From positions 32,860,001 to 32,924,000 of the forward strand of contig OX597833.1 of the NCBI GenBank assembly GCA_951406725.2: DNA of 64,000 bases, read 5' to 3'. Position numbers and translations under genes: made by a program. Shown here one piece after another: positions 1 to 42,541 of the stretch. The notes under the pieces were generated by a model. It saw only the letters and a list, made by a program, of their open reading frames with translations, was not told the origin of the DNA and did not search any database. This stretch comes from Octopus vulgaris (taxonomy: Eukaryota). Position 1 is the first letter of the stretch. The number at the start of each line of letters is the position of its first letter.

Positions 1-285
1 GAAGGCTTGCTCTTTTTTTCGTAGAAGGCAAAATGTAAATCGGACCATGTTAACACCAAAAATTATTTACATCAAAAAGGTGATTTTTTTCTATGAAAAT
101 CCATATTTTTTACAATCTTTTGACTGCTGTTTCGCCATTTTTCGGTGTATTTCAACCAGAAAAATGTTCACTTAAAGAGAATAACAAGCTACATAATGCT
201 TTTTACTTTTCAAAATTTTTACTCTCCAAAAATTCCAATTCTAAAGGGTCGAAACAAACCCGAGCAACGCCGGTGATACTGCTAG
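1..285 (+). mobile_element. 3' end of a non-autonomous Helitron-like element
   Basis: Ends in a short GC-rich hairpin (ccgagcaacgccgg, 260-273) followed by CTAG (282-285) then T, the canonical Helitron 3' terminus. Confidence 0.6.
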
Positions 286-492
286 TTCACTATCAATACA
301 CAACGTGTATTTATAGTGAATGTATAATGAAATGTGGAAATTGACGATTTAAAGTCTGTTCTCAGCATATTGGCATATAAATAATTTTTCTTTTGCCCTT
401 ATTTATAAGTTGTTTATAATTTTAACATTTAAAGATATTTTAATATGCTGCCAGTTTTGATGAAGTTTTTTCTGAAAAAAATTTATCCTAAA

Positions 493-493
493 T

Positions 494-543
<50 letters not shown>

Positions 544-560
544 TATATATATATATATAT
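493..560. repeat. (AGT)n followed by (TA)n microsatellite
   Basis: Direct inspection. Confidence 0.95.
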
Positions 561-750
561 CATTTGTAGAAATACATAAATCCAGAGGAGAAGCACACTC
601 TAAGATATAAAGGCCGGTTTATGGGGTCATCCAATGTTTCTCGCTCATAAGGGGTTTAGCCTTATAGTTCAGGTCAGCAGTGTTTCAGGTCTGAAGATAC
701 ACCGTAAAGCTAAACCCCTTACGAGTGAGAAACCGGCCTACCCTACTATG
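561..750. mobile_element. (TA)n-flanked palindromic mini-element with a degenerate hammerhead-like core
   Basis: ccggttt..ctcgctcataaggggtttagc (614-659) is the inverse of gctaaaccccttacgagtgagaaaccgg (709-736). On +, CTGAAGA (691-697)...GAAACCGGCC (729-738); the usual GTC is changed to GCC. Confidence 0.5.
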
Positions 751-921
751 ATATATATATATTTATATTTATATATATATATGTGTGTATTCCTTGGTAG
801 ACACCATCCCTTCATGAGGCTAACATAGCCTCTATCTGAATTCTCTCTCTCTCTCTCTTTCTTCTCCATTTTCTTTTATAGACTTTTCATTATATATATA
901 TATATCTTTATATATATATAT

Positions 922-1459
922 ATCTTTATATATATAAAACTGAGAATGTGTGTCTGTCTGTGTGTTTCCCTAAAACTTGAGAACTACACAATCAATTTCA
1001 TTCAAATTTTACACATGCCTTACTTAGGGTCCATGTAGTTTTATGGGGGAAAAAATGTTCAACTTCTTGCCGAGAGCGAGCCCATAGCAATATCATATCT
1101 TCTCCACTATTTCAGTATTACGTGATAAAAGTGAAACAAAAATATTTCTCTATTTTATGTCAGATGCTTTCACTTTAACAATAAAAATAATAATAACAAT
1201 TGAATTATATGTAGTAAGTAATAATTAAAATCAAACTAAAGTATAATATAATCGTAACATAACAAAAGTAGAAATAACAATTGGTATAAAATCGCATCAA
1301 TGATTTGAACTTGAATAAGTGGTTTCACATGAATGGGAATAAATAAAATATAAAATTAGCGTACAGAAATGGAATAGTCCAGATGGATAATAAAAAATTA
1401 AATTAAAGAAAAGACTATTGTCTATAAAGTATACAATGTAGAGAAAAAAGAAGAGCTAA
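922..1459 (+). mobile_element. 5' part of a Helitron-like non-autonomous element
   Basis: Starts A|TC-tttatatatataaaa then a short gtct microsatellite, typical of Helitron/DINE-like 5' ends; interrupted by the retroelement array. Confidence 0.4.
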
Positions 1460-3362
1460 CATTCCAGTCTTCATCGCGTGTGTTAAGTAATTGTTAGTTT
1501 TGCATATAGAAATTGAAATTTGAATCGCGCGAGGCATTTGCCGCTGCGCGTTAGAAACTTTTTGTAGAAAGTGCGCCGACCCTCAAGTCATGGAGACTTA
1601 CGCGGGGGTCGCCGCAATGAAAAGCGATACGCCGCTGACAGTAAGAGAGGTGTTCTTTAAAAAAGAACAGCTAGAGGAATTTGAGAAATTCATTGAAAGG
1701 GAGGGTGACAGAGTGAAGCTGGTCCCCCCTGTTGAAGCAAAGGCGGAAAAAGAGGACAAAACTAGAATCTATAGGACACAGGACACGACCACAAGAAAGC
1801 TATCGAGAATAGCGATAGAAGACATAGAAACATGCCTGGACGGCGTTATAAAAAAGGCTACCTTTGTATGCAGAGGCAGGAAATATGGTACGGTGGAGGT
1901 GAGGTACGCAACAAAAGAAGTTGTGGCCTCACTAGCTACCACCGTACTCAGAGGCGAAAACTTCGTCATGTGGCCTACCTACAAGGGGAAAAGAGGGGTG
2001 CGGGTTAAAATCCCAAACATACCCCCAGATTTAAAAACAGAATGGCTGGTAACAGCCATCCTAGGATCAGCAGAAGAAGGTATAGAAATTGGATCGATAA
2101 AAGAGACCAGCATAGTGAAATGGAAGGGATTCGGAGTAGAGATGTGGCTGACAGTCACAAACAGAGATATAGACCGAATTCCCTTCCAAATAGAAGTAGA
2201 AGATGGTAGACCTCTCTGCGTAATAGTTGAGGGGAGGAAGCCCAATTGTTATCTATGTGGGACAAGAGGTCATATTAAAAAAGAATGTCCGCTTTACGAA
2301 TTTGTGGCGGAGAGTGAAAAAGCAGAGAAAGAAGAAGAACCCGAAGAAGGGAACAATACTCTAAAGGAGAAAGAAAGCAAGGGAAAGGAAACAACGGTAA
2401 AAGAAAATAACAATACACAGAAGGAAAATGAAGGCAAAGAGAAGGAATTAATAGAAAAAGAACAAAAGTCACAGGTAATAGAGAAAGAAAAAGAAAGTAA
2501 AATAAAGGAAAGTGAAAAAACAGGAAAAAAACAAGAGAAGGAACAGAACCAAGAGAAAGGAAAGGCTGCTACACAAAAAGAAAAAGAAAAAACAGGAAAA
2601 GAACATACGACAGACAAAGAACCAAAAAGACAAGAGAAGGAAAAAGAAAAGGAAAGCAAAAAGAGAGAAAGAGAAAAACCGAGAGAGGGAAGTAAAGAAG
2701 AAGTAAGCCCGAAGAGGAAAACCAAAGAAAACATAGGGTCAAATAGAAGATACAAATTTTACGGAACATTGGTACAATATAAACACTGTGGGGAGATGGA
2801 AGAACTTATAAGCGAAACGGAAGGATATTCATGGGTCAGGATCGGCACGGAGTGGAAGGAAACGGGTGCACAGGTCCATGAAGACAACGCCGAGGCGTTT
2901 ATCAAGGCCGCTGGAACGAATGTAACAAGACAAATGAAGTGCCGACTACTAAGGTACCCAAAAGAAATGGAAAACTACAATGACCTAAAAAAGGTAATGG
3001 AGATAATTTAAAATTATAGAAAAAAAAGAGAAAATTTGGAAAGACTTTTGGTTATGTATTTTGAAACCTTAAAGATGTATTGCGAAAGATTTATATGTGA
3101 ATTTGTGAAAACAATTTTTCTGTAATTGATAATGTATTTTGAAATTATATTTTGAAATGTATTGAAATGTATTGCAAAATGCTGAAAAATGAATTTGTTA
3201 CTGTTGAAAACATTATAAAATGACGAAATGTAACCACCTGATTTCGGGGATCGGGTGGAGCATTACACCACATTTATACATATTTCATATTTCATTATTT
3301 TTATTTTTTTCCCCCGATTGTACTGTCCCCTCTATGTTCGCCCCTTGTGGGTAATAATAAAA
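1460..3362 (+). mobile_element. ORF1-only non-LTR retroelement, unit 1 of tandem array
   Basis: Begins with the shared motif attccagtcttcat; ~130-nt 5'UTR, intact ORF1, 3'UTR with two hairpins and AATAAAA; no ORF2. Confidence 0.85.
1590..3011 (+). CDS. L1/Tx1-type ORF1p-like protein (RRM-like region, CCHC knuckle, K/E-rich linker), 473 aa, intact
   Basis: N-terminal YA.V motif, RGRKYGTVEVRYAT and VRVKIPNIPP RRM-like segments, GRKPNCYLCGTRGHIKKECP knuckle; homologous to the ORF upstream of the APE ORF2 at 8613. Confidence 0.85.
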   Translation: METYAGVAAMKSDTPLTVREVFFKKEQLEEFEKFIEREGDRVKLVPPVEAKAEKEDKTRIYRTQDTTTRKLSRIAIEDIETCLDGVIKKATFVCRGRKYGTVEVRYATKEVVASLATTVLRGENFVMWPTYKGKRGVRVKIPNIPPDLKTEWLVTAILGSAEEGIEIGSIKETSIVKWKGFGVEMWLTVTNRDIDRIPFQIEVEDGRPLCVIVEGRKPNCYLCGTRGHIKKECPLYEFVAESEKAEKEEEPEEGNNTLKEKESKGKETTVKENNNTQKENEGKEKELIEKEQKSQVIEKEKESKIKESEKTGKKQEKEQNQEKGKAATQKEKEKTGKEHTTDKEPKRQEKEKEKESKKREREKPREGSKEEVSPKRKTKENIGSNRRYKFYGTLVQYKHCGEMEELISETEGYSWVRIGTEWKETGAQVHEDNAEAFIKAAGTNVTRQMKCRLLRYPKEMENYNDLKKVMEII

Positions 3363-5135
3363 TCTTCCAGTCTTCATTGAGTGTGTGTTGTAGTTGTGAC
3401 CAGACGGTGAATTTTTTTCTGTATAAATTGATTTGATATCGCGCGAGGCGTTTGCCTCCACGTGTGGAAACCTTCCGAAGAAGGTGAATTGACCCTCTAG
3501 TCATGGCGACTTACGCGGGGGTCACCGGAAAAAATAGCGATTCGTCACTAATTGTAAGGGAGGTGTTCTTTGAGAAGGAGAAACTCAAAGAATATGAAAA
3601 GCTTTTCAAAAGGGAGGGTGATAGCGTGAAGCTAATCCCCCCCCCCCCCGCGAAAGCAAAAGAGGATAAAGAAAGCAAGACGGTGACATATAGAACCCAA
3701 GACAAGAATACGAAGAAACTGGCAAGAGTGGAGATAGTCGAAATTGAGAAATGTCTGGGAGACATAATGGGAAAATAACCTACGTGAGTAGAGGCAAGAA
3801 ATTTGGTACGGTGGAGGTGAGATGTGCAACGGAGGAAATTGCGGCCTCACTGGCTACCACCGTACTAAGAGCCGAAAAATTCACAATGTGGCCCTCATAC
3901 AAGGGAAGAAGAGGGGTCCGGGTTAAAATCCCGAATATACCCCCAGAAGTGAAAATAGAATGGCTGGCAACAGCTATTCTAGGAGCAGCAGAAGAGGAAG
4001 TGGAGGTGGAATCAATTAAGGAGTCCAACGCGGTAAACTGGAGAGGATATGGGGTAGAATTGTGGCTGATGGCCACAAAAGAGGATATTGAAAGGTTTCC
4101 CTACAGAATTGAAATTGAAGAGGAAAAAACCCTCAGCGTAATTGTAGAGGGGAGAAAACCAAACTGTTACTTGTGTGGGACAAGGGGGCACATTAAAAAA
4201 GAGTGCCCGTTATATGAATTCGTAGCGGAGTGCGAGCAGGAACTTGAAGAAAAGAAGAATACTGTAAATGAGAAAGAAAGCATAGAAAAGGAAACAAAAC
4301 AACAAGAGAAAGGAAATAATAAGTCAATGAAGGAGAAAGAAATAAAAGAAAAGAAAGAAATAGAACCAAAACAGAGTCAGGAAAAAAAAGGAAAAAGAAA
4401 CAATAGGAAAAAAACAAGAGAGGGATCAGAATCAAACGAAAAGAAAAGACGGCACACAAAAGGAAAGGAACATAAAGCACGAGAGAAAGAGAAAACAGAC
4501 ACAGAGCCAAAAAGACAAGAGAAGGAAAGAGAAAGAAAAGAAGGCAAAAAGAGAGAAAGAGAGAAACAAAGAGAGGAGAACAAGGAAGAAATAAGCCCGA
4601 AAAGGAAGATGAAGGAAAACGCAGGACGGAAACAAGATTACTATTACTACAAGTTAGTAACCTACCATTTCTGCCCTGTAATGAATGACTTGACAAGTAA
4701 AACGGAGGGACATGTATAGGTCAACAGGATGACCGACCGGTGGCAGGAGACTGCTCTAATCCCCGAAGAAAGAGCCGCTGAGTTCCTCAGAGCTGCCGGG
4801 GAAAATGTAATATTTTACACGAAGGTTCGAGTGAGAGAGCGGCTACCTGAGGACTCAGTGATGGACTTCAGAGAAGTGAAAACAATTATAGAATATGTAT
4901 AGAATTGTGAGAGGAAAAAAAAAAGAGAAAAAAGAAAATTTTGTGAAATATATGTGACGAAAATGTAACCTCTTGATTCCGGGGATCGAGTGGACATTTA
5001 CATCTCATTGTAAATATTCTTTCATATGTCATTTTTACTTTTATTTTTTCCTTTTCTTGTCATTCGCTTTCTTATTTTAAGTTCCCCGATTGTATTGTCC
5101 CCTCTATGTTCGCCTCTTGTGGGTAGTAATAAAAT
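3363..5135 (+). mobile_element. ORF1-only non-LTR retroelement, unit 2
   Basis: Same junction motif (ttccagtcttcattgagtgtgt at 3365), same 5'UTR end (ccctctagtcATGG) and same 3'UTR hairpins/AATAAAA. Confidence 0.85.
3503..4902 (+). pseudogene. ORF1p-like paralog with a 1-nt frameshift and a premature stop
   Basis: One A missing in the run at ~3773-3776 joins ORFs 3503-3778 and 3751-4719. TAG at 4717-4719 where paralogs have TGG; homology continues in frame to TAG 4900-4902. Confidence 0.8.
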
Positions 5136-7060
5136 CATTCCAGTCTTCATTGAGTGTGTTGTTTAGTTATTTTGTATGTGAAAAATTTGGAAAAAAAACT
5201 GTTAAAAAATTGTCAAAAATTGAATCGCGCAAGGCGGTTGCCGCTGCGTGTTTGAACCTTTTATAGAAGGTGTGTCGACCCTCTAGTCATGGAGACTTAC
5301 GCGGGGGTCGCCACAACAAAAAGTGATGAGTCTCTTAGAATAAGAGAAGTGTTCTTTAGAAAAGAACAATTGAAGGAATACGAGAAGTTCATCAAAAGGG
5401 AGGGTGACAGCGTGAAGCTGGTCCCGTCTGTTGAAACAATAGAGGAGAGAAATAACAAGACGATAACGTATAGAACGCAAGATAGGAACACGAGAAAACT
5501 GGTGAGAGTGACGATTATAGAAATAGAGAAATGTCTGGGGGACATTATGAAGAAAGCGACTTTTGTAGACAGAGGAAAGAAATATGGTACGGTGGAGGTG
5601 AGATGCGCAACAAAGGAAGTGGCGGCCTCATTAGCTTCCACTGTTCTGAAAGCCGAAAATTTCACTATGTGGCCGACGTATAAAGGAAGACGAGGGGTAC
5701 GGGTAAGAGTCCCAAAGGTGCCCCCAGAAATAAAAACAGAAATGCTGGTAACAGCCATTCTAGGGTCAGCAAAGGAGGAAGTAGAAATAGGGTCAATCAA
5801 GGAGACCAACGTTGTAAATTGGAAGGGATTCGGAGTAGAGTTGTGGCTGATGGCCACAATGGAAGACATCGAAAGGTTTCCCTTCCAAATAGAAATAGAA
5901 GACGAGAAAACAATTAGTGTAATTGTGGAGGGGAGAAAACCGAATTGCTACTTGTGCGGGTCAAGAGGGCACATAAAAATGGAATGTCCGCTGTATGAAT
6001 TCACAGCGGAGCAAAAAGAGACACAAAGTGGAGAGAACAAAAAAGAACACGAAGGAAAGAACAGCGAAAACAAGGAAAAGGAAATAACGGAGAAACAACA
6101 AGAGAAGGGAAGTAACAGCGCACAGAAGGAAAATGAAAACAAAGGGAAGAAGATAGTAGAAAAGGAGCAAAATTCACAGGGTGGAGAAGTAGTGGAGAAG
6201 AAGCCAAGGCAGAAGCAAGAGAAAGAAAAGGAAAGTACATTAAAGGAAAGAGAAAAAACAGGAAAAGAACAAGAGAAGGAACAGAACCAAGAGAAAGGAA
6301 AAGATGGTATGCAAAAAGGAAAAGAAACAACAGGAAAGGAACATAAGGCACAGGGTAGAGAGACGACAGACAAAGAGCCAAAAAGACAAGAGAAGGAAAA
6401 AGAAAGAAGAGAAAGCAAAAAGAGAGAAAGAGAGAAACCGAGAGAGGAGAAAAAAGAGGAAGTAAGTCCTAAGAGAAAAACTAGAGAAAATGCAGGTACG
6501 AATAGAAAATTCAAATACTATGGAACGTTGATCCATCACATGCACTGTGAGGAGATGGAAGATTTAATAAACGTAAGAAATGGATATACGTGGGTCAGGA
6601 TGGGCACCGAATGGAAAGAAACAGGTGCACTCGTCCACGAGAACAACGCTGAGGCGTTCATCGAGGCAGCTGGCAAGAACGTGTCAAAACATATGAAATG
6701 CCGACTTACAAGGTGGCTACGAACGATGGAAATTTACCAAGATTTTGTAGAGATAATGGAGTATATATAAAAGAAAAGGTATTGTGAAAACTTTAATTTG
6801 GAAATGATAAAAAGAACTTTAAATTCTGAAGAAAAAAAATGTTGAACTTTGTAAAATTTTTGAAATATATGTTGAAAATGTGTAAAATGTTTTTATTTGG
6901 AAAATATTGTTGAGGAATAAAAAATGACGAAATGTAACCGCTCGATTTTGGGGATCGAGTGGGCATTACACCACATTGTACAAACTTCATAATTCATTAT
7001 TTTATTTTTCCCGATTGTATTGTCCCCTCTATGTTGCCCCTTGTGGGTAGGAATAAAACA
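5136..7060 (+). mobile_element. ORF1-only non-LTR retroelement, unit 3
   Basis: Junction motif at 5136, intact ORF1, conserved 3'UTR hairpins, AATAAAA at ~7052. Confidence 0.85.
5289..6770 (+). CDS. L1/Tx1-type ORF1p-like protein, 493 aa, intact
   Basis: Colinear with 1590-3011; GRKPNCYLCGSRGHIKMECP knuckle. Confidence 0.85.
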   Translation: METYAGVATTKSDESLRIREVFFRKEQLKEYEKFIKREGDSVKLVPSVETIEERNNKTITYRTQDRNTRKLVRVTIIEIEKCLGDIMKKATFVDRGKKYGTVEVRCATKEVAASLASTVLKAENFTMWPTYKGRRGVRVRVPKVPPEIKTEMLVTAILGSAKEEVEIGSIKETNVVNWKGFGVELWLMATMEDIERFPFQIEIEDEKTISVIVEGRKPNCYLCGSRGHIKMECPLYEFTAEQKETQSGENKKEHEGKNSENKEKEITEKQQEKGSNSAQKENENKGKKIVEKEQNSQGGEVVEKKPRQKQEKEKESTLKEREKTGKEQEKEQNQEKGKDGMQKGKETTGKEHKAQGRETTDKEPKRQEKEKERRESKKREREKPREEKKEEVSPKRKTRENAGTNRKFKYYGTLIHHMHCEEMEDLINVRNGYTWVRMGTEWKETGALVHENNAEAFIEAAGKNVSKHMKCRLTRWLRTMEIYQDFVEIMEYI

Positions 7061-7311
7061 ATTCCAGTCTTCATTGAGTGTGTAGTGAGTCATTATATTT
7101 TCCTCTGTTATATTCTACTGTGTTTCTGATTGACTTTGTCTGTATTGTCTGTTGTTGTACAATTATTGTAATCAGCCTTCGTGCGAGGGCTTCGTGTTGG
7201 TGTTCCCCCCTCCGTGGGGAAAATCTATCGTTATTGATGCATTTGAGGTTTGCAAAACCAAAAACCTTTTTTCGCGGTTGTGCTAAAGGCTTGTTAAGCC
7301 AGTTTTCAGAG

Positions 7312-8604
7312 ATGGACTCCCCCATCTCCTATTCACCCATGTCAAGTGATGCAGGATCACCGGCGGTGTCGCCGAAGAAAAAAGAGACCCCAGCACCAGC
7401 TAGAAAATTTTCTGAAGTCGCTGGAAAGAAAATTAAAAAAATTAACACTGAAAACCTACAGAAATACGCAGACTGTTTGATAAAAGAGGGCACAGAAGTA
7501 ACGGTGTTTACGAATGCCCAAAAGCAAGAAGAGATTGATAAAAAAAGAATAATATACAAGACTTTCAACATCACATGTAAGTCTATACAAAGAATAGAGG
7601 AGAAAAAAATAGAAAACTGCCTAAAGCCGATATGGGATAAGATTACGTACATCAATCGCGGGAAGAAATACGACACAGTGGAGGTGAGATTTGCAACGGA
7701 GGAGGTAGCCAAAAAGCTATCCATGGAACCCATGAAAGCGGAGAATATTGTTCTCCTCCCCCTGTATAGAGGCAAAAGAACCTCAAGGATAACAATGAAC
7801 AATATTCCGCCAGAAGCGGACGCCACATGTCTGGTGGCAGCAGTTATGGTAGGCCTGGAGGAAAAATAAACATCCTCCAGGCCACAGTAGAGGAGGAAGA
7901 AAATTGGAAAGGGCAGCGTATAACGATAGCCATCCAGGCAGAGATACAAACCCTGGAAGAGATTCCGGAGACACTGAAAATCAGTGAGGACGAAAGAGTC
8001 GTGGAGGGCAGAAAGCTGAGGTACTTCGGCTGCGGTAAGAAAGGGCATGTAAGGGCAGAATGCCAACCCAAACCGCAGGAAGCAGCTCAGCCAGGTGGAA
8101 GAACAGAAGAGGTGTCACCAGAAGCAGCGCCGGGCGGCCCAGAAGGGACGGCTGAAGGTGTGGAGGTGACAGAGGCAGCAGAACCGGCGGCGAAGGTAGT
8201 GGAGGAAACAAAGAGCGAGGAAACGAAAAATGAGGAGGGGTGGTCAAAATCACTAGGAAAAAAAGAAAAACTGAAACCACCCCTCCGAAAGTAAACCAAA
8301 AGAAAAAAGAGAGTCTTTGAACTCATTTATGGCCATTAAGGCCTCAAATAATAGACTCGGTAATGTGTTGGCAGCTATGGCCAAGGTAGAAAAAATTGGA
8401 AGAAAAAATGATTACATATTGTACAGAATAGGCCGGAAGGATTACGGACGGATAAAGTCCGAATTTTTTCATGACGTGAGCCCTCTCAGAATGGATATAT
8501 CATCACCATATATATTCGAGGGCCTGCGTCAGACTCCCCCGCGAGGCCCAGAAAAAGAGGAAAAAAATGAAGAAGAGAAAGGAAAAGTCGAACCACTGAT
8601 ATAA
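7312..8604 (+). pseudogene. ORF1 of the two-ORF element, frameshifted
   Basis: NRGKKYDTVEVRFATEEVA, ITMNNIPPE, knuckle YFGCGKKGHVRAEC (first Cys changed to Tyr); frameshifts near 7866 (one A missing) and ~8290. Confidence 0.75.
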
Positions 8605-8612
8605 GGTAAGTC

Positions 8613-9158
8613 ATGGATTACATTTATGTTGGTTGTTTAAATGTGCGCGGCCTGGGATCAAGCTGGAAGCAAGGTCGCTTCCTTAATGATATCAGGTCGC
8701 GTAATTTGGATGTTATTGTTGCTACAGAAACGCGGTTAGAGGGGCCAAGAGGTCTACTCCCGCTGTTTGACGGCTACGAGAGTTTTTTCTCTCCGGCCAG
8801 TCCTACAGGCGGGAGTGGGGTGTTGGTCCTATTAAAAAGAAACCGGGTTTTTGAGAAAAAGTTAATTTTTTCAGACCCAGAAGGTAGGCTGGTCGTCATG
8901 GATTTGACGTTCAGTAACGGTAAAGTTATCAGACTGGTTGCAACTTACGCACCCAACCAAAAAAGGCAAAGTGATTATTTTCGAGAACTGGAAAACTTTC
9001 TTGGTACTTCGCATTCATTAGTTGTGCTAGGAGACTTTAACACAATTTGCAAAGCGGATGTAGATTGTGTTGGCTTGCGTCCAGATAGAAAAGGTAACAT
9101 TGGCTTCCTGGAACTGCTAAGCCACTTTGAGCTAGCAGATCCTTATAGGTTGGAATAA
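8613..9158 (+). CDS. AP-like endonuclease domain of LINE ORF2 (N-terminal fragment)
   Basis: LNVRGL, DVIVATET, GGSGVLVL, GRLV, TYAPN, VLGDFN motifs; ends before the C-terminal D/SDH catalytic motifs; no RT. Confidence 0.9.
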   Translation: MDYIYVGCLNVRGLGSSWKQGRFLNDIRSRNLDVIVATETRLEGPRGLLPLFDGYESFFSPASPTGGSGVLVLLKRNRVFEKKLIFSDPEGRLVVMDLTFSNGKVIRLVATYAPNQKRQSDYFRELENFLGTSHSLVVLGDFNTICKADVDCVGLRPDRKGNIGFLELLSHFELADPYRLE

Positions 9159-9161
9159 TTG

Positions 9162-9189
9162 GAATAATTGGCACATATTATATTTACAG

Positions 9190-9249
<60 letters not shown>

Positions 9250-10082
9250 ATATATGCACTCTGCATCGACAGTAGATTGCATTCCCAGAATACAGAATGA
9301 TACCCTTTTAGTGAACATATTCAGAAATGTGCAAAGCAAATGCTACCACAATTTGTAATCTTTCTATTCTATCAATGTACCATTGGAGCACCAACACAAA
9401 TTAGATTAAGTAAGGAAACCTTTTCATTGAAAAATATAAGCTAAAACTTAACCATTTCTAACATTTTTAAATAAGGAAATTCTCCTCATTGAAAAAAAGT
9501 ATAAGGCAAAAACCTAACCACTTGTAACATTCTATTCCTTCTAAACCAAATTATGTTAAATTAATTAAGCCTAGTCATTCCCAACATCTTTGATTATCTC
9601 CCTTATACCGGAAAAAATCCCTAATTACCTACCCCTGCCTGGAACTCCATATTTCACAACATAGCGAAGAGATGACACGATATAGGTAAAGAAATTTTGA
9701 AAGAAAATACGAAAACAGTTATTTCTCCCAAAACTTGGTTACTATACGCAAAATTTTATAACATTTTTCTAACGATGTTACTGTTGTTTTAGCCCCAAGA
9801 AACATCGCTTCAAGATGACCGTACGACACAATATCTGTGTCCTTATATTTTCGAACAGGGATTTCGGCACTCCCACCTGGCGAAAAACACCATCTGTGAA
9901 CTAGTCCAAAGATGTTGTTTTGCGCTAGGTGAGAGTGCTGAACTCCCTGTACAAATATATAAGGAGACAGATAGTGTGTCGTACAGTCAGCTTGAAGTGA
10001 TGTTTCTTGGGGCTAAAACAACAGTAACATCGTCCTTGCCAGGACAGCTACATTACGTTGGCGAATAGGCTTTACTTTATAT

Positions 10083-10160
<78 letters not shown>

Positions 10161-10190
10161 CTGTAAATATAATATGTGCCAATTATTCGG
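9162..10190. repeat. Inverted duplication, arms 9162-9253 / 10078-10190 including (TG)n/(CA)n
   Basis: gaataattggcacatattatatttacagatat(gt)n..gcgtatata is the reverse complement of the right arm. Confidence 0.85.
9772..10033. repeat. Inverted repeat with ~80-bp arms
   Basis: 9772-9849 vs 9954-10033; the right arm is homologous to 38015-38090, just downstream of the hammerhead at 37928. Confidence 0.8.
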
Positions 10191-10380
10191 TAGCCAAAAT
10201 AAAACTCTGAGTTTCGGATGCCGAGGTGGAAATCCACAATACTATATCTTCAGTTATCCGGCCATCTCTGAAGATGGATTACTGAAGAGATGGTGGTGTG
10301 GATTTCCACCTCGGCATCCGAAACTCAGAGTTTTATCTTGGCTACCGAATAATTGTCACACATTATATTTACAGATATAT
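10157..10380. mobile_element. Palindromic mini-element with a hammerhead-like motif in each arm
   Basis: Arms 10157-10237 / 10298-10380. + strand: CTGAAGA gatg..catcc GAAA ctc a gag TT ttatc; - strand has ggataa CTGAAGA..GAAACTCAGAGTT ttat. Confidence 0.65.
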
Positions 10381-10775
10381 ATATATACATACACGTCTAC
10401 ACAACAGTCTACTCTATCTGTGTATATATAAAATGTGTGAATTAGGAAATACACATAGGCACAATCAAACATGCACACACAAGAAGATAGCGGTACACAC
10501 ACAAATACACACACGCATACATACATGCACAGTGACGCACACACATGCTCACAAACAAAGAGAGCGCACCTCGGATAAACGACAGAGTCAAGGACTATTG
10601 AAGAGTTTGCCAAACTCAACGAAAATTTTAGAAAAATAAATAAGTATATGAGTGGAAATCGAACAATTGTGTGTGCTAAATAAGGCACTAAAAGAGAAAG
10701 ATTCTCACCAGACACAGTAAAATATGCTTCAACACACGAATTCACATAAAGAATCTTGCAAGCCAAATACAAAAA

Positions 10776-10820
<45 letters not shown>

Positions 10821-10822
<2 letters not shown>

Positions 10823-12579
10823 AGAAAAACCCACCTTTTATTAATTCAAAATGAATAATTAAATTACACCATCTAGAAAATTACATATAATAGATTTAAA
10901 TGATAAATAAATAATTATATTATTTTAAAATACATATTATAGTAATATAAATTATTTTCAAAATAATATATATGTATTTTATTTGATTACTTATTATTTA
11001 GACTTTAAATTTATAGTAAATATTAAAAAAAAATTAAATGATATTTTATGTACTTATATATTACATTTAACTTATCCTTAGTATTATTAAACCTTATCTT
11101 GTCTCATGTGGCTTATTCATTTTATCGTAGATATTATCTAATAGTATTAAAGTATTTTTTACTGTTTTATTATAAATCATATTAATTTTTTAAAAAAATA
11201 ATGATGAATAATATTTTTTGATGATGAGTTTGAGATGAGTTTTGGGCTTCATCTGTTAGAGTCTATAGGAAGGGTTGAATGGTAGGAGTCTGAGAATTTG
11301 ACGTTAGTTGGCAGTTTGTTGTAGATTGGATTTTGGTAGCGATGGTAATAATTTATAATGATATTAATAATGTTAATAATTATGTTGATTATTAGAATAT
11401 TAATGATAATAATATTTATAATCGCGTATGGCTTATTATAGGATCAGGGTAGTGATGATGAACAGGTAATACTGAATATACTATTTTTACTATTACTACT
11501 TTTATTAACTTTATTTAATTCCCGTATTTCATTAATTTTATTTTTTTAGCCTTTTTCATTAATAGTTATTTTCTATTTTTCCATGCAACGTCTCCACGAG
11601 TTTTATTTCTTATAGACGCTAAGTATTATTCTTTACGTTTAAAATCTCAAATTTTCTCAAATTTTTTTAGTTCATGAGGCTTTAAAGTTTTTCGTCTTTT
11701 CGTATTTTTCATTGATAAAAATTTCGCCACGTTCATTGAGTATTTATTCTATTTCTTTGCACTATGTATCCACGCGATAATTTTATAAACGCTTTAACTA
11801 TTTATTTTTTTAAATCAGTTTCTCTTCAATCTTCGCTAAACGAAGTCTGACTTTTTATCGTTTCTCTATTTCATTTGAATATTGAACCGTTGTGTTTGAA
11901 ATTATTATTATTGTTGATATTATTATTGTTTGATGTAATATTATTATTTATTTATACTTTCTTGATAGCATTTTTTACGTCCGATGTTTAATTCTTATAA
12001 AAGATTTTACGTTTTACATATTATTTAATTTGAGAATTAATAATGTTAGACTATATTTCTTTTAATTATTAGATAATATTTTCATTAAATAGTATTATTT
12101 TAAAATAAACTGGTTTTTATTTTAATATAAAGTTTATGTTTAACTTTTTTCTCGTGTGATATATTAAATCTATAGATATTATACATGGATATTAATATAA
12201 CGAGTTTATATAATGGAGTTGAGTATATTTGTACTATTTCAAATTTTTGATTGTATTTTTCAAGAATGGAATCGATTGAGTTGATTAATTAGACGCTTAT
12301 CATATTGATACATTTAAAATCTAGATAGATTAACAGAATCGTTGAACTTAGTAAATTAGTTCGTTTACCAATATTATTTAGTTCTTGCTATTATTTTGAC
12401 TTTGACCGTTGTTATTATTGGTATTGTTATTGACTAGTTTGGTAGAGAACTGGTGATTGTAATTGTACATCTTCATAGTGTATTGTTCTTTGGGTCTAAT
12501 ATTTTTGCACCTTTCGTTAATTTGGGGTTGATAGGTTTTCTTACTTTCCATTAACATATTCTCGCCATATATAATATAT

Positions 12580-17571: not shown

Positions 17572-19399
17572 ATGTATAACTATAGTCCATGCATCCTACA
17601 CATAAGAAATGTTTTTGTTTTTTGAGATTCATTCTGCATCTTTCTCTTGTAATTGTGAGACAGAAAATTATAAAATAAAAATTTGAATAAAATCAAAATG
17701 TTTATAAAATATTTTGCTTCGAATTATCTTTTTATGTATGCATATATACATCAATCCACCCATCGACGCTTTCATCTATCAATCTTTCTATCAATTCATC
17801 CATGAACTCATATAAATGTGTGTGCATGCGTGTACGTTTAACATACAAATGTACAAATACACACGCATATGTTTCAGCATTTGTATATGTGTAACTGGGA
17901 ATCGACTTGTGGTCAAATATGACCACCTCTTGGTTTTTACCATGGAAGCCATCATGGATTGAATGGGAGTAGACATATATACATGCCCGCATGCATACAT
18001 ACATATATACATATAAACATACAAATACAATGACTTTGAGCGCATTTTTCAGTATATCCATGATAAACAACAGAAAAATATTACAAGTTCTACTAAATCT
18101 AGAAGACATCACCACTTCCTCACTAAATATGAACAACATTCAGTCAAGAACCCCAGAGTCGTTCCAAATACCCTTCTACCACTGAGGATCTCCCCTGGCG
18201 GAAGCACATCCTTAGCATAGCTAAAACAGCATTCCAAAATTGGCGCTTCGATTGAGGGTCAAAAATTATTTCAATCCTCAACGGCTGACACTCTAAAGGG
18301 CTGCTCTCAATGTGGCACGGTGCTGCTGCTACGAATAAAGACATCTTGGAGCGCATCAAGGGAATGACCATGAAATTAAGTGGAATTTAATACCTAACCG
18401 ACTTGGCTCGGCCTCTGGCCCACTGATATGCTGTGTTCTATCCATGTCTTTAATATCTAGTAACCATAGTCTTTGTATATCTTCCAGACATATGAGACTG
18501 ATACAGTGGATACTCATCAAGATACAGAAATGTTCAAAGATAGTATATCTTTTAATGGTCCAGGAGTGTAGATTAGTGACATTCTAGCAAGATTGTTAGT
18601 TTCTATCTTAGCTAACTTCAATTATTAGTACCTATGATTTATAGACTTAATCAATAATATGTAAAATAACAGGCTATACCATGGTTACTTGCTATATTTT
18701 ACATCCATACTGGGAAACAACTGCAATGTTCCAACAGTTGAATCACTGACAGTAAGAAAGAAATGGGAGTGTTTGTAATTTGGTACAGTAACAAATACCC
18801 TAAGGGACTTCGTTCAAGAACATCTTTTCGGTATTGTCACCGATGTTTGCCGTTAAACTTCAGCGAGAGAAACACATACATATACACAGAAACGTGCACT
18901 CATGTACAGGCACACACATATACACACACACACTGACACACGCACAGAGATAAACAAACATGCATGCACATACATACATACAGACAGACACATGTAAGTA
19001 AGTAGTTAGATAGATAGATTTACAATTGGTGAAGTTATTAGAGTATCGGGCGAAATAACTTGCACTCTCCCCGTATCTTACGTTGGTGGTAATCATACTC
19101 TGTCATCGAGTTGAGCTCCATCACTTGGTTCTTGGGTATTTGGGTATCTTTGACAGAATCTAGCCTGTTGCAAGCATTTGGACCACTGAAAATACCTTCC
19201 TTCCCACTTTCCACTAGTTTCGCAGGTCCTTCAAACCGTTATATGTGCTAACTATATCTCGTTACTTGGAAAGAAATTCATGTGCGCGTGTATGTATGTA
19301 TATATATATATATACATACATAATACATACATAATACATACATACATAATACGTACATACATACATTCATACATACATACATACATGCATAGTGATAAA

Positions 19400-20715
19400 G
19401 CATTCCACTGATGCCATAGAGACACAAGTGTGGGTATTCCTACCGACGTACTGTAGTAAGCGAGTTGTTAGAGTGAGGGTGAGAAAAGTGCGACCGGAGT
19501 TGAATGAAACATGGCTGGTTGCCGCAGTCATGTACAATATGGAGAAGGATGCGAAAATCCTGAGAGTAACAAGAACGAAAAGAATGAAGTGGTGGGGACA
19601 CGGAATCGATATTGCAGTACATGTAAGTGTGAGTAACATGAATAAAATTCCAGAAGAAATCATTCTACCCGAAGATATGAGATTGAGAGTGGTACTGGAT
19701 GGAAGGCATCCCATATGCTACCTGTGTGGCGAGAAAGGCCACATGAAGTCGAGATGCCCCCAAAGAGAAGAGAAGAAACAACAGATGGAACAGTCTAAGG
19801 AGCAGGAGAGGGTGAACGATGTGGTGCAGGAAGATGAGAAGGAGGCAACAGGAATAGAAGAGGAATTTGAAGTGGTCAAAAAACGAAAGGGGAAAGAAAG
19901 AATGGGCTCTCCGCTGGAGAGACAGAAAAAGATAAAAAGGAAGCAGATAAAGAGGTGGAGAAGGAAGTCGTAAAGGATGTTCGAAAGGAGGTCGAGAAAG
20001 AGGTACAAAAAGAGGTTGAGAGGAGGTTATGGAGGAGGAGGGGGAGATAGAAGCAAGCATACGAAAGAATGTTTCAGGACAGCAACGAGAAGAAACAGCG
20101 ATACTAACCAGGATCGAGGCGGTAGCGCCAAGATTGGAATATAGAAAACAAGCAAGAATGGCGAGAAAACATAGCTGGAATTTCGTGACATATGCTAAAA
20201 GCATAAATACCTAAAAAAAAAAAAACAAGCTTAAATCCGTTATAAGGGTTAAGTTGCCAAAGGAGATGTACGGTGAAAATGTAAAAGCTATTTTAATTGA
20301 TAAAGAAAAATATAACAAGTTGAAGGAAAAGTGTCAAATTTAACAACCGGGATTTGTGGTGGAGTTCGACAAATTACCGCCAGTAGTAAAATTAAGTGAA
20401 CTAGAGCCGCACATAAGATATTAATAAAAAAAAGAGTAAAATTGTTTGCGAAAAAAGGAAAAAAGAGAGTAAACAAAATGATGCTAATTGTGAAAAACAT
20501 ATCTGGGAAAAAGAAAAAGATTATAAACTGAAAGTAAGAACGTTCAAATGGTACTATATGTGAGTGGGGTGCATGCAGCCATTTCATCACCATCGATTTC
20601 ATTATTCGTTTTTTGTTCATTTTTCATTAGTTTTATACTTTTTGTTCCCACTGTGGTGTTCTGCCTGTCCTTGTTTTGTCTCTCTGTGTTCATGGCCTTG
20701 GTGCCAAATAAAGAA
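19400..20715 (+). mobile_element. 5'-truncated ORF1-only retroelement (divergent lineage)
   Basis: VRVRVRKVRPELNETWLVAAV, GRHPICYLCGEKGHMKSRCP, K/E linker, decayed C-terminal domain, then 3'UTR hairpins and AATAAA; no ORF2. Confidence 0.75.
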
Positions 20716-20985: not shown

Positions 20986-22275
20986 CAGGGAGGGGAAGCA
21001 AAATTTACAATATTTTGAGGCAGGGATTGAAAGACAGTGTATGACCAATTAGTTTATTGAAAGTCATGAGAATTTATTTGCCAAAAGAAAATTTACATAA
21101 TAGAAAATGTTTTTATTCTATGTGTCCTCCTTCTTTCTCAATAACTGCCTTCATACACTTCCTGAAACTTGCACAAGTGTTCCTCGGATATTCGGGAGAC
21201 AACTTCCCCCATTCTTCTTTAATAGCATCGTTAAAAGAGTCGACATTGCTGTGTGATGTTCTATTGGTAGCATGTTCTAAAACGCCCCAAATAGCATAAT
21301 CCAGAGGGTTTAGATCTGGGCTAGAAGGCGGTCATAAACATGATTCCAAAAAATTGCTAAAGTTGGATTTGCAGAAATCTGGTATTTTTCTAGCTGTGTT
21401 GGCTGGAGCACCATCCTGTGTCCATACATAATTACCATCTGGGTAGTTTGCTTTAAGCCATGGCAATACCTGGTATCTCAGAGTCTTGTAGTAAGTATTA
21501 ACATTGATCTTTTCATCAGCTTTGTAGAATTTTATAGGCATTTTCTTTCCATCGGAAACCACAACACCAAAAGCCATAACTTGAGCAGGATGTTTTGTTT
21601 TAAATGTTCTCTTAACTTCAGCTGTTGATTTTGCGATAAATCTGTCATTTCTGCGGTTCAGAACAGCATCAACAGTGAAGATCTTTTCATCTGAAAAGAT
21701 CGTTACAATGGAGGACTTTTTCTTGAACCATGTAATAATTTTCTTGCACCTTTCCAATCTCTTTTCCTTCATAGCTGTTGTCAACAAGTGTTTTGGTGTT
21801 CTTGTGTAAGATTTTAACCTCAAATCATATTTTACTGCATTTCTAATGGTCTTGTTGTCTACCTGAAGTTCAATTGCCATTTTTCTCATGGATTTGGTTG
21901 GAGCCTTTAGGATTTTGGATTTGAGAGCTGTAATAAAAGCTTTGGTACGTTTTTTTGTTGATTCCTCCACTTCCAGACTTCATCGTAATAGTTTTGCTCT
22001 TAGTCATTCTATTCTTTACATTATAAACAGTCTTTATGGGCACTCCAACTATTCTTGAAATCTCCTTTGGTATGACGAGTGCATTCAGCAAATTACACAC
22101 TCTTTGACAATTGCTTTTCTGATTACTCATATGGGCAAAAGCTTCTGAAAAGGTAAGGATAATAGTGTTAGGTATGATTATGACATCAATATATGCTAGG
22201 TTTCAAAACAATTGACTTAGTGCCTGCTGAGAAAAACAACTTAACTTTCATTGTAAATTTTGCTTCCCCACCCTG
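20986..22275 (-). mobile_element. Tc1/mariner DD37D (maT-type) transposon with disrupted transposase
   Basis: TIRs cagggaggggaagcaaaatttacaat / attgtaaattttgcttccccaccctg with TA on both sides; FSDEK, QDGAP, and 37 residues to the D of SPDLNPLD; frameshift ~21960, stop 21332. Confidence 0.92.
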
Positions 22276-26526: not shown

Positions 26527-27787
26527 TTGGGTTGGTAACTAAGTTCCCGCCCTTTTTGTAAATTTTGGAATTCATTGCGTTTTTAAATTTTAGATTCTAT
26601 TTTTTTCGAGAATTCTAATTTTGAATCATTTTGGAATCTATTTTTTTTTTCTAGTTAATTTTTGTTAATTTTGTTTATTTTCAGATAATTAAGATGGAAT
26701 GTCAAGTTAAGAAAAAACGAGCATTTTCGGCACCTCCTTCTTTTTGCCTTTAATCAAGGTTCTAAGGGTGCAAAAGCTGCTCGCGACATTTGTGCTGTGT
26801 ATGGAGAGGGTGTCATAGCTGAAATAACCACTCGTGATTGGTATGCCAAGTTCAAAAATGGAAATTTTGACCTCAAAGACGCACCTCGTTCTGGCCGTCC
26901 AGTTCAGTTCAATGAAGAGCAATTAAACTAACTTTTGCCCGAAAATTCTCGTCAAACGACAAGAGAACTGGCAGAGAAAATGGAATGCTCCCACACTACT
27001 ATAGTGAAGCATCTTCACTCGATGCGAAAGGTTCAGAATTATGGAGCATGAGTTCCGTATGCTTTAAGTGACAACAACAAAAATCAACGAGCCACAATCT
27101 CCGCTGGTTTACTTGCTCGTCACTGCTCAACCCATGGACACAAGCAACGATTTCTTTACCGAATAGTTACTGGCGACGAAAAATGGTGCCTGTACATCAA
27201 TATGAAGCAGCGTAAGTAAAAAGCGACACCACGCATGAAAGAAGATCTTCATCCACGTAAAACGATGTTGTGCTTATAGTGGGACTGTGAAGGGATTATC
27301 AATTACGAATTGCTTGATCGGAACCAAACGGTCAACACGGAACTCTATGTTCAACAGATGGAACGACTCAACACGGCTATTCAAGAGAAAATACCTAATC
27401 GGCAGCATGGAGTTCTTCTGCTGCACGCCCTCATATCGCCAATATGAGCATGGAAACCACTAAAATGCATGGCTGGGAAGTGCTGCCACACCCACCGTAC
27501 TCTCCTGATTTGGCACCAACGGATTTCCACCTCTTTCGATCTCTTTCAAATGCTATGCGTGGAGTTTCGTTCAATATTGATGCAGAATTGAGAGCTTGGT
27601 TGGATCAATTTTTCGAGTCGAAATCGGATGATTTCTATCAACGAGGTATTGAACATCTTGTTAAACGTTGGGAAGATGTTGTAAATAATAAGGGTGAATA
27701 TATGATTGATTAATTAATTTTTATTTTTTAATAAAGCGTTTTAAAAATTTAATTAAAAAAACGGCGGGAACTTAGTTGTCAACCCCG
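26527..27787 (+). mobile_element. mariner (DD34D-type) transposon with pseudogenised transposase (26694-27713)
   Basis: TIRs gggttggtaactaagttcccgcc / ggcgggaacttagttgtcaaccc with TA flanks; RSGRP, IVTGDEKW, YSPDLAPTD motifs; several stops. Confidence 0.92.
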
Positions 27788-34746: not shown

Positions 34747-35760
34747 ATGAAAAGTTACGCAGAGGCTACTGGAGGTCGAGTTCCCCTGGACCCACGTGTG
34801 CTGAAGTCAGAGATGATGGAGTAGAATGAGAAGAAATTATGGCATGATAAAAAAAGAAGGGTCAAATAATGGTCCTGCCAGAAGAGGAAAAAAAGAAAAA
34901 TGGAAAAGAAGACGGTCATATTCAGAACATTTTCGAATGTGAATAGAAGAATAGAACACGCACCGCAGGAAGAGATAGAGGAAATCTTGTAGGAACAAAT
35001 AGAAGGGATAACTTTCTTTACAAGAGGAAGGAAATATGCGACTATAATAGTAATCTTTGTATCAGAAGAGGAGACGAAAAAAACTAACAGGCTGATACAA
35101 GGAGAGAAATGGACGTTAATGTCAAACTGCTTGGGCAAAAGAATCGTTAGGATTAGGGTGGGAAGAATCTCACCGTCGATAGACCCAGTATGGGTAATAG
35201 TCGCAATTTTTAATTCCGAGCTGGAGAAAGGAAGTGAAGACCTGAAGATTGGCATAATAAGCCGAACACTACACATGAAATGTTGGGGCTACGGTATAGA
35301 GATAATCTGTGCAATGAGCCCGAAATATTACGACGAAATGGCGGAAACTGTGGAACTACCAAATGGAGAAAAGCAGGAAATAATGTTGAAGGGGAGACCC
35401 CCCTCCCCCCCACAAAGTGCTACGGATGTTGTGGAATAGGGCACTTGAGAAGGAAATGCCCTAGTGCGGCAGTGGAGATGGTAGAGGAGAGTGTTCAGGA
35501 AAATATAATGGAAAAAAACAGAACATGACGGGAATTTTATGGAAGTGAAACCCAGGGAAAGAGAGAGAAGGAAGTCACCGGCGACAGTGGAATTGAAGAA
35601 ATGTAAAGCAATGGAAGAGGAAACCCAACCCACGACGAGAAACGGAGAAAATTTTGCAACTGATTTATTTATTACCCACAAGGGGCTAAACATAGATGGG
35701 ATAATACACACATGCGGGGACACTCAACATATGAAAGAATGGAATAGTGACATTATACAA
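34747..35760 (+). pseudogene. Decayed ORF1-like gene (same family)
   Basis: MKSYAEATG, FFTRGRKYAT, RIRVGRISP..WVIVAI, knuckle TKCYGCCGIGHLRRKCP; multiple stops and frameshifts. Confidence 0.75.
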
Positions 35761-35764
35761 TAAA

Positions 35765-37500
35765 GATGAAACGGCGACCCTGGCCCCGCTGCAGGGTGGT
35801 TGCGTTATTTCAGTTATTTCAACACTTCTTTTCAAAATTACTTCAACATTTTTCAAAAGTTCTTTTCACAATTATCTCCACAGTCTTTTCAAAATTATTT
35901 CAACATCAAAAGTTCTTTTCAAAATTATCTTAACAGTTCTTTATAACATAAAACTCTACTTACCATTTTATATTGTTCTTAATTTCCTCATAGGTCACCA
36001 CTGGAGCGTTGAGTTGGAAATTCACCTCGGACCCCAGTGGGTTTATATCTGATGGGAAAGCCTCTTTTAACTTCCTATACTTATCTTTTTCCATTAAAAT
36101 CCATCTCGTCTCCTTATCGTAAACCTCCGAGAGGTCCACTTTAACAATGTCTTTCATTTTAGTTATTTTCCTTTCTATTTTTTGTGTCGACCGATATGTT
36201 ATCAAATATATTCTGTTCCGGTGTATCTCTTCCATCTGTATGTCTGTTCCTTTTTGGTTTTGTGACTCTGTACTATCATGTGTCTGTTCTTGTATATTTA
36301 TTTGTAGCTGTATGTCTGTCCTTTTATTTGTCTGCGGGTTTGCATGTTTGTGCGACTGTAAGTCTGCATATTGTGTCTGTGTATCTGTGCTTTTTGGTTT
36401 CTGGAAAAAAAGGAAAAACAAGTAACGCTTCCGTATGTATGTATGTCTGTGAGTTTATGCGTCTGTGAATCTGTCTGTTTGTACCATTGTGAGTCTGTAT
36501 GCTCACTTGGTGATGTTCTGCTTTTATCTTCTTTTCTCGGTGATCCTTCTTGATCCTGTGATTTATATGTCTTTCTTTGTTCAAATTTCGGCAATGAGCT
36601 CCTCCATTCTCTCTTCCTTGACTTAGCTTCCTCAAAATCGGCGCTCTGTGCCTGTTTCTTCTCCTCTATCACGCCTGCTTGCGTTTCCATTTCTATGTTT
36701 TTCATAATTTCTGAGCACCTTCTTCTAATGTGACTTCTTTTGCCACATTCATAGCACTTTGGAGGTTCCTTTCCAACATTATATCCAGCTTGTTCTAATT
36801 TGTCAGTTCCAGTGTCTCCGGTATGGTATCGCATTCTGTCTGCTTTGACGAGAAACCCACCTCCAAACCAAACTCCCATCAATTTATTTGTTGGGTTCTA
36901 GTTATCATAACTACCTCTACTTCTTTTTTTCCTGAAAAATTGCTGCCATTACCCATTCCGGTTCCATTTTCGGCGGGATCCTACCCACCCTAATCCTCGT
37001 TGAACGTCTACCTATCTGATTGGGAAAGAGCATCCAATTTCCTCCAGTTAACGTCTTATTTGCGTATTTCCTTGCTGGCTCTTCCGATTCAAATGTGACC
37101 TCTACAGACGCGTATGTCTTGCCTCTTGTGAAAAACGACACATCTTTCAATTCCTTCAAAGACTCCTCCACATCTTCCTTCGTTGTGCTCTCTATTCTTT
37201 TATTTTTCCTTGAAAACAATTTATATTCCACCACCGTAATTTCCATTTTGGCCTTTTCCTCCTCTGATGGCGTCAACTTTACGTTTGGCCCCTCTTTCTG
37301 TACCATCTCTAGATATTTTCCAAATTTTTTAGCCATGTCTTCATTCCAGTGTATTTCGTATTGCTTCAGCAGGACTGGGACCACGGAAGCCCGACTCCCC
37401 GTCGCTGTCGCATATGTCTTCCCTTTCTCCATCTCAGTAATGCTCACCAAACAATGGTGGGGTTATACTCAAAAACTGCTGCAAAGCACACAAAACGATT
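35765..37500 (-). mobile_element. ORF1-only retroelement (divergent lineage), disrupted
   Basis: 37450-36917 TYATATG, TRGKTYASVEVTF, RIRVGRIPP; CYECGKRSHIRRRC; C-terminal domain to 35960; then the family 3'UTR hairpin (35770-35806); no ORF2. Confidence 0.8.
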
Positions 37501-41704: not shown

Positions 41705-41903
41705 TTTAGATTGATCCTCCCAGAGATAACTTAGCAACTAACATTATGTTGTGACTACAGAATCAGGAGTCTGTTCTGAATAAGAGTAAGCTCAAGAAGA
41801 GATATGCGTGAATCATCGACGGTAGAATTAGCAGCAAGCTAACGAACTAAGAAGTTGGGTGTTTCTGAGGACGACCTAGAACATCTGACAACATCATAGG
41901 TGG

Positions 41904-41954
<51 letters not shown>

Positions 41955-42288: not shown

Positions 42289-42341
<53 letters not shown>

Positions 42342-42541
42342 CCACCTATGATGTTGTCAGATGTTCTAGGTCGTCCTCAGAAACACCCAACTTCTTAGTT
42401 CGTTAGCTTGCTGCTAATTCTACCGTCGATGATTCACGCATATCTCTTCTTGAGCTTACTCTTATTCAGAACAGACTCCTGATTCTGTAGTCACAACATA
42501 ATGTTAGTTGCTAAGTTATCTCTGGGAGGGATCAATCTAAA
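41705..42541. repeat. Near-perfect large palindrome with ~355-bp arms
   Basis: 41705-42058 vs 42182-42541, each arm containing a (TA)n run; inner mini-palindrome 42075-42149. Confidence 0.9.

Follow-up and report, generated by a model that had tools for sequence, protein, structure and literature searches.

Target-specific retrotransposons that carry part of their landing site offer the closest described parallels to the locus reported here. In Drosophila, copies of R1 accumulate in tandem at a single target, with a target duplication between copies and growth on the 5' side (Stage and Eickbush 2009, PMC2718515). In the same paper, melanogaster-type R1 transcripts are inferred to carry 6–27 nt of upstream 28S sequence that anneals at second-strand priming, and stretches of upstream target show up as tags at off-target sites. 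For R2 RNA, up to 36 nt of upstream 28S sequence has been postulated to lead to uniform 5' junctions (Eickbush et al. 2013, PMC3774820). Some elements of the Tx1 clade target transposons (Tx1 in Tx1D; Tx1-Mar and SINEU-3 in Mariner-N4_AMi), and SINEU-3 has tandem copies around a target duplication, with transcription from the flank discussed (Kojima 2015, PMC4494074). Here, we describe an array of long interspersed element (LINE) units in Octopus vulgaris, in a window of 64,000 nucleotides (assembly GCA_951406725.2, contig OX597833.1, positions 32,860,001 to 32,924,000), in which a 22-nt motif recurs at the junctions. We read the motif as a self-copying junction and not a pseudo-long terminal repeat (pseudo-LTR), i.e., as a target duplication together with a leader probably borne on the element's RNA, and on sequence comparison give this reading a probability of roughly 0.72.

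The motif, TTCCAGTCTTCATTGAGTGTGT, occurs exactly at positions 3365, 5138, and 7062 of the window and with two mismatches at 1462; 100 shuffles gave no match, which confirms the observation of a sequence-only reading that had preceded our analysis. The exact copies follow the AATAAAA of the preceding unit by 2, 3, and 3 nt, and the copy at 1462 is preceded by a Helitron, not by a unit. Genome-wide, there are seven exact copies and 31 copies of a degenerate form, and, in the count with and without adjacent elements that the sequence-only reading had proposed, the 5' untranslated region (UTR) of an element came after 31 of 31 degenerate copies. Solo and array-terminal copies end in AATAAAA, 2 nt, ATTCCAGTCT, and GTTATA; the target duplication is thus followed by Helitron, and the last 13 nt of the motif are absent. 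Given the empty site (below), these solo 3' ends, and the 31 copies that precede an element, the motif is a composite junction: its first 9 nt, TTCCAGTCT, are the target duplication, and its last 13 nt, TCATTGAGTGTGT, are the beginning of the next unit. The suggestion that it is a regenerated target-site duplication consequently holds for the first 9 nt, as the empty site carries ATTCCAGTCT, and fails for the remaining 13. A pseudo-LTR comprising the whole motif is not supported, because its last 13 nt are missing from solo and array-terminal 3' ends, the very observation that the sequence-only reading had named as telling against itself, and because all 31 copies precede an element. The idea that the motif marks the start of the next unit is indirectly supported, in that the junction accompanies new copies as a 5' leader. 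A small-RNA or ribozyme origin of the motif was also considered, and no Rfam match reached gathering level in window positions 1–12000 (15 sub-threshold matches) or at nine loci.

The sequence that precedes 1462 belongs to a high-copy repeat (1024 first-look candidates, 40 of them scored), the 5' arm of which lies at 923..1460 on the + strand; its 3' arm is absent from the window. The site is empty in 27 of 30 fetched host copies, which read GAGCTAACA, ATTCCAGTCT, and GTTATA in succession; the other three are the window itself, one copy filled with the motif, and one variant host. As the empty pattern also matched a filled locus on C14, 26 copies are truly empty, and 154 exact empty sites were counted genome-wide. 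Empty host copies measure about 0.7–1.0 kb, start with TC(TTTATA), and finish in a hairpin followed by CTAG; the hairpin and CTAG/TTAG end is present in all 26 empty copies whose 3' end was found, and the TCTTTATA start is visible in most. Helitrons have a 5' TC, a 3' hairpin followed by CTRR, and insert between A and T; by these structural features, the host repeat can be classed as a non-autonomous Helitron-like element. Three target classes recur among the insertions: A (ATTCC), which is the window's Helitron; B (ACATG/ACCTG), the same Helitron with about 300 bp inserted at the site; and C (AACTG), which is a different repeat.

The window array consists of four units, three of 1.75–1.9 kb that have a CCHC-knuckle ORF1 alone (types T1, T2, and T3), followed by the 5' part of an APE LINE. 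Each ORF1-only unit is a member of a genome-wide family, and the three share 72–73% pairwise identity; they are therefore separate insertions, not one duplicated unit. PF00098 was found in all three, once under the curated cut-off, and Atlas leads for ORF1 were CCHC, ZCCHC3-RBD, and RRM clusters. The APE domain of the window LINE matches PF03372 (E=4.5e-11), and this LINE has 89% identity to an open ORF2 at another genomic locus. For an open ORF2 of 1132 aa outside the window, homologues have PF03372, PF00078, and often PF13966; PDB matches of the endonuclease domain (nine sequences) were exclusively L1 endonuclease/ORF2 entries. The element thus has the APE endonuclease, reverse transcriptase (RT), and C-terminal zinc finger of a Tx1/L1-group ORF2 and the CCHC zinc knuckle/RNA-binding domains of a Tx1/L1-group ORF1. 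No labelled Tx1 reference was returned by homologue and Atlas searches, and we call the autonomous element a Tx1/L1-like LINE, a name that draws on architecture and target behaviour. Its partners have ORF1, no ORF2, and a 3' tail in common with the autonomous LINE, as HAL1-like elements do. HAL1, HeT-A, and Ag-Sponge are described as non-autonomous LINEs in which ORF1 is present (PMC5786205), and HeT-A forms head-to-tail arrays; like them, the octopus partners encode ORF1 alone. The octopus arrays, unlike those of HeT-A, are not telomeric, have target duplications, and carry leader tags from the host repeat rather than from an upstream unit.

Exact matches to a 19-nt core of the 3' tail number 244 genome-wide. 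From the core family, we fetched the majority of the arrays and of the off-host copies, with divergent relatives among the 244 left out. A set of 194 3' ends (up to two mismatches allowed) contains no poly(A) tail: AATAAA is followed by a single A in 188 and by 3–4 A in three (longest run, four), and three ends lack AATAAA. On-host ends outnumber off-host ends by 156 to 34 in a fetched set that favours arrays, and by 61 to 34 when the first scored unit per stretch is taken; more than 20% of flanks lie in one repeat, the threshold above which Kojima calls a LINE target-specific. A LINE and three ORF1-only partner families share a single-base insertion point in a non-autonomous Helitron. Arrays have up to about 20 units, with ORF1-only units mostly upstream of the autonomous copy. 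Long uniform arrays of one ORF1-only type are found at C7 100.09–100.13 Mb (about 20 units), C1 64.24–64.26 Mb (eight), and C22 41.95 Mb (at least seven), and these may include DNA-level expansion.

Several loci suggest that the junction travels with the element. At L147, a site unrelated to the Helitron, a foreign tag identical to Helitron flank and motif comes after a local duplication of 17 nt; the tag is found on a T3 unit as well as on an autonomous one (L148 resembles a duplicate of L147 and was left uncounted). Similarly, C7_13.51 has a class C tag within an A-like site. The clear foreign tags begin 5–8 nt upstream of the donor nick, with host bases; the longest, at L147, starts at the base equal to 1454, which is +31 from the first T of TATAAAG. 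A GCC variant of the flank upstream of the nick has 11 matches, six of them in unrelated DNA, and the five Helitron sites that carry it are all filled and none is empty. The solo units C1_3.67, L190, and L192 mismatch their own target within the duplicated stretch, and the strings concerned recur at other loci; at C2_46.85, a class C leader lies over a unique site, with 13 of 15 nt matching. The duplications made by the truncated first units at C4_93.96 and C3_38.17 match the variant of the adjoining junction and not the pristine target, so stacking at these two loci was on the 5' side. Neighbouring junctions at L191 are all different. The sequence-only reading had also called the motif a self-target; the primary target is the Helitron site, and the term is apt for later copies, which re-use the regenerated 5' junction at the two informative loci. 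Taken together, the junction and 5–8 nt of host flank are likely carried on the element RNA as a 5' leader, and the simplest reading is that this leader measures about 25 nt and that its cDNA pairs with, and overwrites, the target.

The mechanism we propose would have four steps. Transcription of the first unit would begin within the host, a short way upstream of the nick, and a host TATA box may drive it. The leader cDNA would then anneal to a matching target, prime the second strand, and overwrite mismatched bases, so that full-length copies would arise mainly at matching sites. Every insertion would regenerate the target on the 5' side, and the word would spread both as target duplication and as RNA leader, even across subfamilies. 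In the fourth and weakest step, the RNA would run a few nucleotides into the downstream duplication, as the position of AATAAA 3 nt from the element's end suggests, and could pair with the nicked strand. On-host, 138 of 148 units are full-length (eight more ran off the fetched stretch), versus five of 34 off-host; counting the first unit per fetched stretch, the figures are 53 of 61 versus five of 34.

TATAAAG is present in 24 of 27 empty host copies and in all 43 matched host arms of the fetched array stretches (one of which is an empty copy); in the window, it lies at 1423..1429 on the + strand. A promoter borrowed from the host TATA is plausible, since in the standard host TATAAAG precedes the nick by 39 nt and the start of the longest tag is at +31. 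Among the 19 off-host sites that have a duplication next to them, two show TATAAA at -39/-40 (background p about 0.003, the interval having been chosen from the Helitron spacing), which at two sites is at most suggestive of a general targeting of transcription start sites, an idea that we set aside. We likewise discarded the resemblance of L147 to a histone-type promoter, as no such open reading frame (ORF) was seen there. Contigs of four runs that we guessed to be RNA contain unit 1 nearly exactly, in pieces of 1069–1208 nt with 0–1 differences, and extend it back to 1425–1444, upstream of the inferred start at about 1454; one contig bridges a tail-junction-unit join, and the matches listed for a control stretch are short pieces only. 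None of this is used as evidence, because contigs cannot reveal transcript starts or ends.

Several points weigh against the self-copying junction. Clear foreign tags number just three, at two loci, and two more are unclear (L151 and L126). Within class B, the nearest body at another locus has the same leader subtype in 11 of 32 cases, versus 8.9 expected (p=0.25), so strict vertical inheritance of the leader is not supported; this null result fits leader pickup by target duplication within arrays, or poor resolution among bodies that are 99% identical. The on-host excess of full-length units could also reflect selection, or a preference in cleavage by the endonuclease or of the second strand. 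The units have a conserved CGCG-type motif in their 5' UTR, which could be an internal promoter. The terminal 3' junction of the array is itself absent from the window. Finally, an RNA-derived base beyond +1 was seen at no 3' junction, so that the fourth step draws on the absence of poly(A) and on the off-target match described below.

Compared with the systems above, as the cited passages describe them, the octopus arrays are like R1 in their tandem arrangement, target-duplication separators, 5'-side growth, and leader tags of upstream target. R1 uses a conserved 28S ribosomal DNA target, whereas the octopus target is a transposon site and the leader extends across the nick and has diversified by mutation into many variants; also unlike R1, several ORF1-only families share the leader, and at least three target classes exist within one family. 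The tie between upstream target on the RNA and 5' junctions is shared with R2, in which a ribozyme frees the RNA from an rRNA co-transcript; the octopus scans, unlike R2, gave no Rfam match at gathering level. The R2 endonuclease is restriction-like, and that of the octopus LINE is an APE. As with Tx1-Mar and SINEU, a LINE and non-autonomous partners favour a DNA transposon, and tandem copies sandwich a target duplication; unlike there, the octopus host is Helitron-like and the partners encode ORF1, and an RNA-borne, target-overwriting junction is not described for Tx1 in the passages cited. For SART1Bm and R1Bm, it is proposed, and shown by assay, that a short target-like sequence at the 3' end of the RNA can pair with the nicked strand (PMC7265360); in the octopus, such 3' annealing is inferred, and its insertions are without poly(A), unlike those of SART1. 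In the passages cited of an octopus repeat paper, L1-Tx1 families are given as recently active, with no detail on junctions (PMC13282606).

Our literature search, the coverage of which excluded most subscription papers and Repbase reports, found no account of such junction behaviour in a Helitron-targeting LINE. Every component has precedent; the combination and the overwrite evidence are new. The arrays provide a genomic, many-copy record of how a LINE completes its 5' junction, the least understood step of retrotransposition. In this record, the target appears to be overwritten by a short leader that derives from the landing site and that accompanies full-length integration.

Target choice itself may involve more than the endonuclease. 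We scored 30 off-host insertions (23 A, four B, and three C) out of 34, after setting aside two without a parsable tail and two that aligned too briefly; class was set by the nearest on-host tail with explicit target lists, and L126, L145, L146, L148, and L153 were excluded as duplicates or ambiguous. Off-host bases +2 to +5 match the usual flank of the lineage at 88 of 120 positions, versus a permutation mean of 55, and a site's own class is strictly best at 27 of 30 (p<1e-4), or at 19 of 22 with a loosely confirmed duplication. The off-target copies of T2B, an endonuclease-less partner, all start with AC (four of four), three of them with ACATG. The match fits the pairing of a 3' read-through tail with the nick, which the sequence-only reading had put forward, yet it is confounded: endonucleases also cluster by target class (52 rows), and, since they differ by lineage, RNA-guided retargeting is unproven. 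That donor flank at both RNA ends, besides the endonuclease, picks the next site is a tentative idea, which we consider distinctly less probable than its negation. If it were true, target preference would be heritable and could be switched when a copy lands behind a new promoter, and an APE-type LINE would be retargetable by RNA, which bears on how sequence-specific LINEs gain targets and on LINE-based gene insertion. It would explain why three classes coexist, why endonuclease-less partners keep the target word of their lineage off-target, and how ORF1-only parasites jump the queue to the promoter-proximal slot. The RT is near-identical across classes A, B, and C, which makes the question directly testable.

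The alternative that survives best is protein-directed targeting, in which the endonuclease alone picks the site and makes a duplication of 11–19 bp, TCATTGAGTGTGT is the element's own 5' end, and the three classes reflect endonuclease evolution. The endonuclease mainly sets target choice according to the passages cited of Kojima 2015 (PMC4494074). Endonucleases fall into lineage clades, and in our comparison of 15 A, 21 B, and five C copies, majority residues differ at 17 (A–B), 21 (A–C), and 10 (B–C) of 250 positions, with class A copies more diverged than B and C. The differing positions 16–17, 41, and 116–118 align to S20-A21, H45, and T119 of the L1 endonuclease, which we take to contact DNA; the predicted hairpin segment 184–201, on the other hand, is identical in the three classes. 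ORF1-only bodies in different target classes are 96.6–98.3% alike, which protein-directed targeting and RNA steering both allow. With regard to the choice of nick, this account is compatible with a self-copying junction. It does not account for host-flank tags at an unrelated site, for the GCC variant at filled sites only, or for the mismatches in solo duplications, and we regard it as an improbable substitute.

Still less credible is a pseudo-LTR like that of HeT-A, by which the 3' end of one unit would provide promoter and start for the next, the motif would be poly(A) site and start in one, and arrays would be self-sufficient. Such a pseudo-LTR has start and promoter in the 3' end of the upstream unit and yields an element-derived terminal redundancy. 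AATAAA lies right before the motif and GU-rich sequence after it, junctions are without poly(A), and stacking re-uses the junction, all as this account would have it; nevertheless, besides the 13 nt missing at the 3' ends of solo and terminal copies, no unit precedes the first one in an array, and all three clear tags, a small number, open with host-repeat bases and not with an element tail. The latter argument is qualified by the full-length on-host units, 85 of 138 of which are not first in the fetched stretch. That tandem duplication or gene conversion of DNA within arrays, and not retrotransposition, made the motif copies is the least likely of all: some arrays elsewhere are long and uniform (C7 100.1 Mb and C1 64.2 Mb), where it may contribute, and the null comparison of leader and body fits some recombination, but it is excluded for the window by the 72–73% identity of units from genome-wide families, and solo copies with target duplications and the differing junctions at L191 also speak against it.

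All features of the window array are on the + strand. Junction 1 (1461..1483) comprises a target duplication at 1461–1470 that has lost one A, the remainder of the leader at 1471–1477, and the unit from 1478. Unit 1 (1478..3364; T1) has an open ORF at 1590–3011 (473 aa) with a CCHC knuckle. Junction 2 (3365..3386) reads TTCCAGTCT (target-derived), TCATTGA (leader), and GTGTGT (unit start), and junctions 3 (5137..5159) and 4 (7061..7083) each read ATTCCAGTCT, TCATTGA, and GTGTGT, the latter followed by the autonomous LINE. ORF1 of unit 2 (3381..5136; T2) runs from 3503 and is interrupted twice, by a frameshift (near 3775) and by a stop codon (4719); unit 3 (5154..7060; T3) has an open ORF at 5289–6770 (493 aa). 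The conserved 3' tail (7017..7060, also about 3320–3364 and 5092–5136) is common to the autonomous LINE and ends in AATAAAA and 2 nt, with no poly(A). The 5' part of that LINE (7078..9156) has a fragmented ORF1 and the APE endonuclease at 8613–9155, and is cut off at 9156; its remainder and downstream flank are absent from the window.

Further observations concern the target classes and their hosts. The insert of class B (L061/L170) resembles part of the ORF1 of a related element, and the new target may therefore itself be an old insertion. The pristine class B target, ACATGG, contains an ATG that is missing from many leader variants (ACCTG, ACAGC, ACGTG, ACATC, and ACACG). Selection against upstream ATGs might be the reason; ACCTG occurs in host copies too. 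In the class C host (L149 3300–3745), a ATTTGCAT octamer precedes the nick by about 110 nt and there is a short stretch rich in GC downstream; this segment gave no Rfam match. Divergent relatives with a AATAAAGAAAT tail (C1_75.83, L157, L160, L163, L171, and C1_108.56) insert either at the Helitron site of the core family or at a nick that lies about 9 nt upstream of it.

Elsewhere in the window, other repeats at 9157–10380 cut the LINE at 9156, with inverted copies of a 30–35 nt motif beside (CA/TG)n, and a perfect hairpin lies at about 10213–10322. Older ORF1-related remnants (29–32% identity) are found at 19374–19901 (-), 34912–35406 (+), and 36935–37291 (-), and a related 3' tail at 35703 (-). 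ORF fragments at 21332–22202 (-) and 27399–27713 (+) resemble Tc1/mariner transposase. A perfect inverted repeat of 232 nt with a spacer of 350 nt occupies 41716–41947 and 42298–42529.

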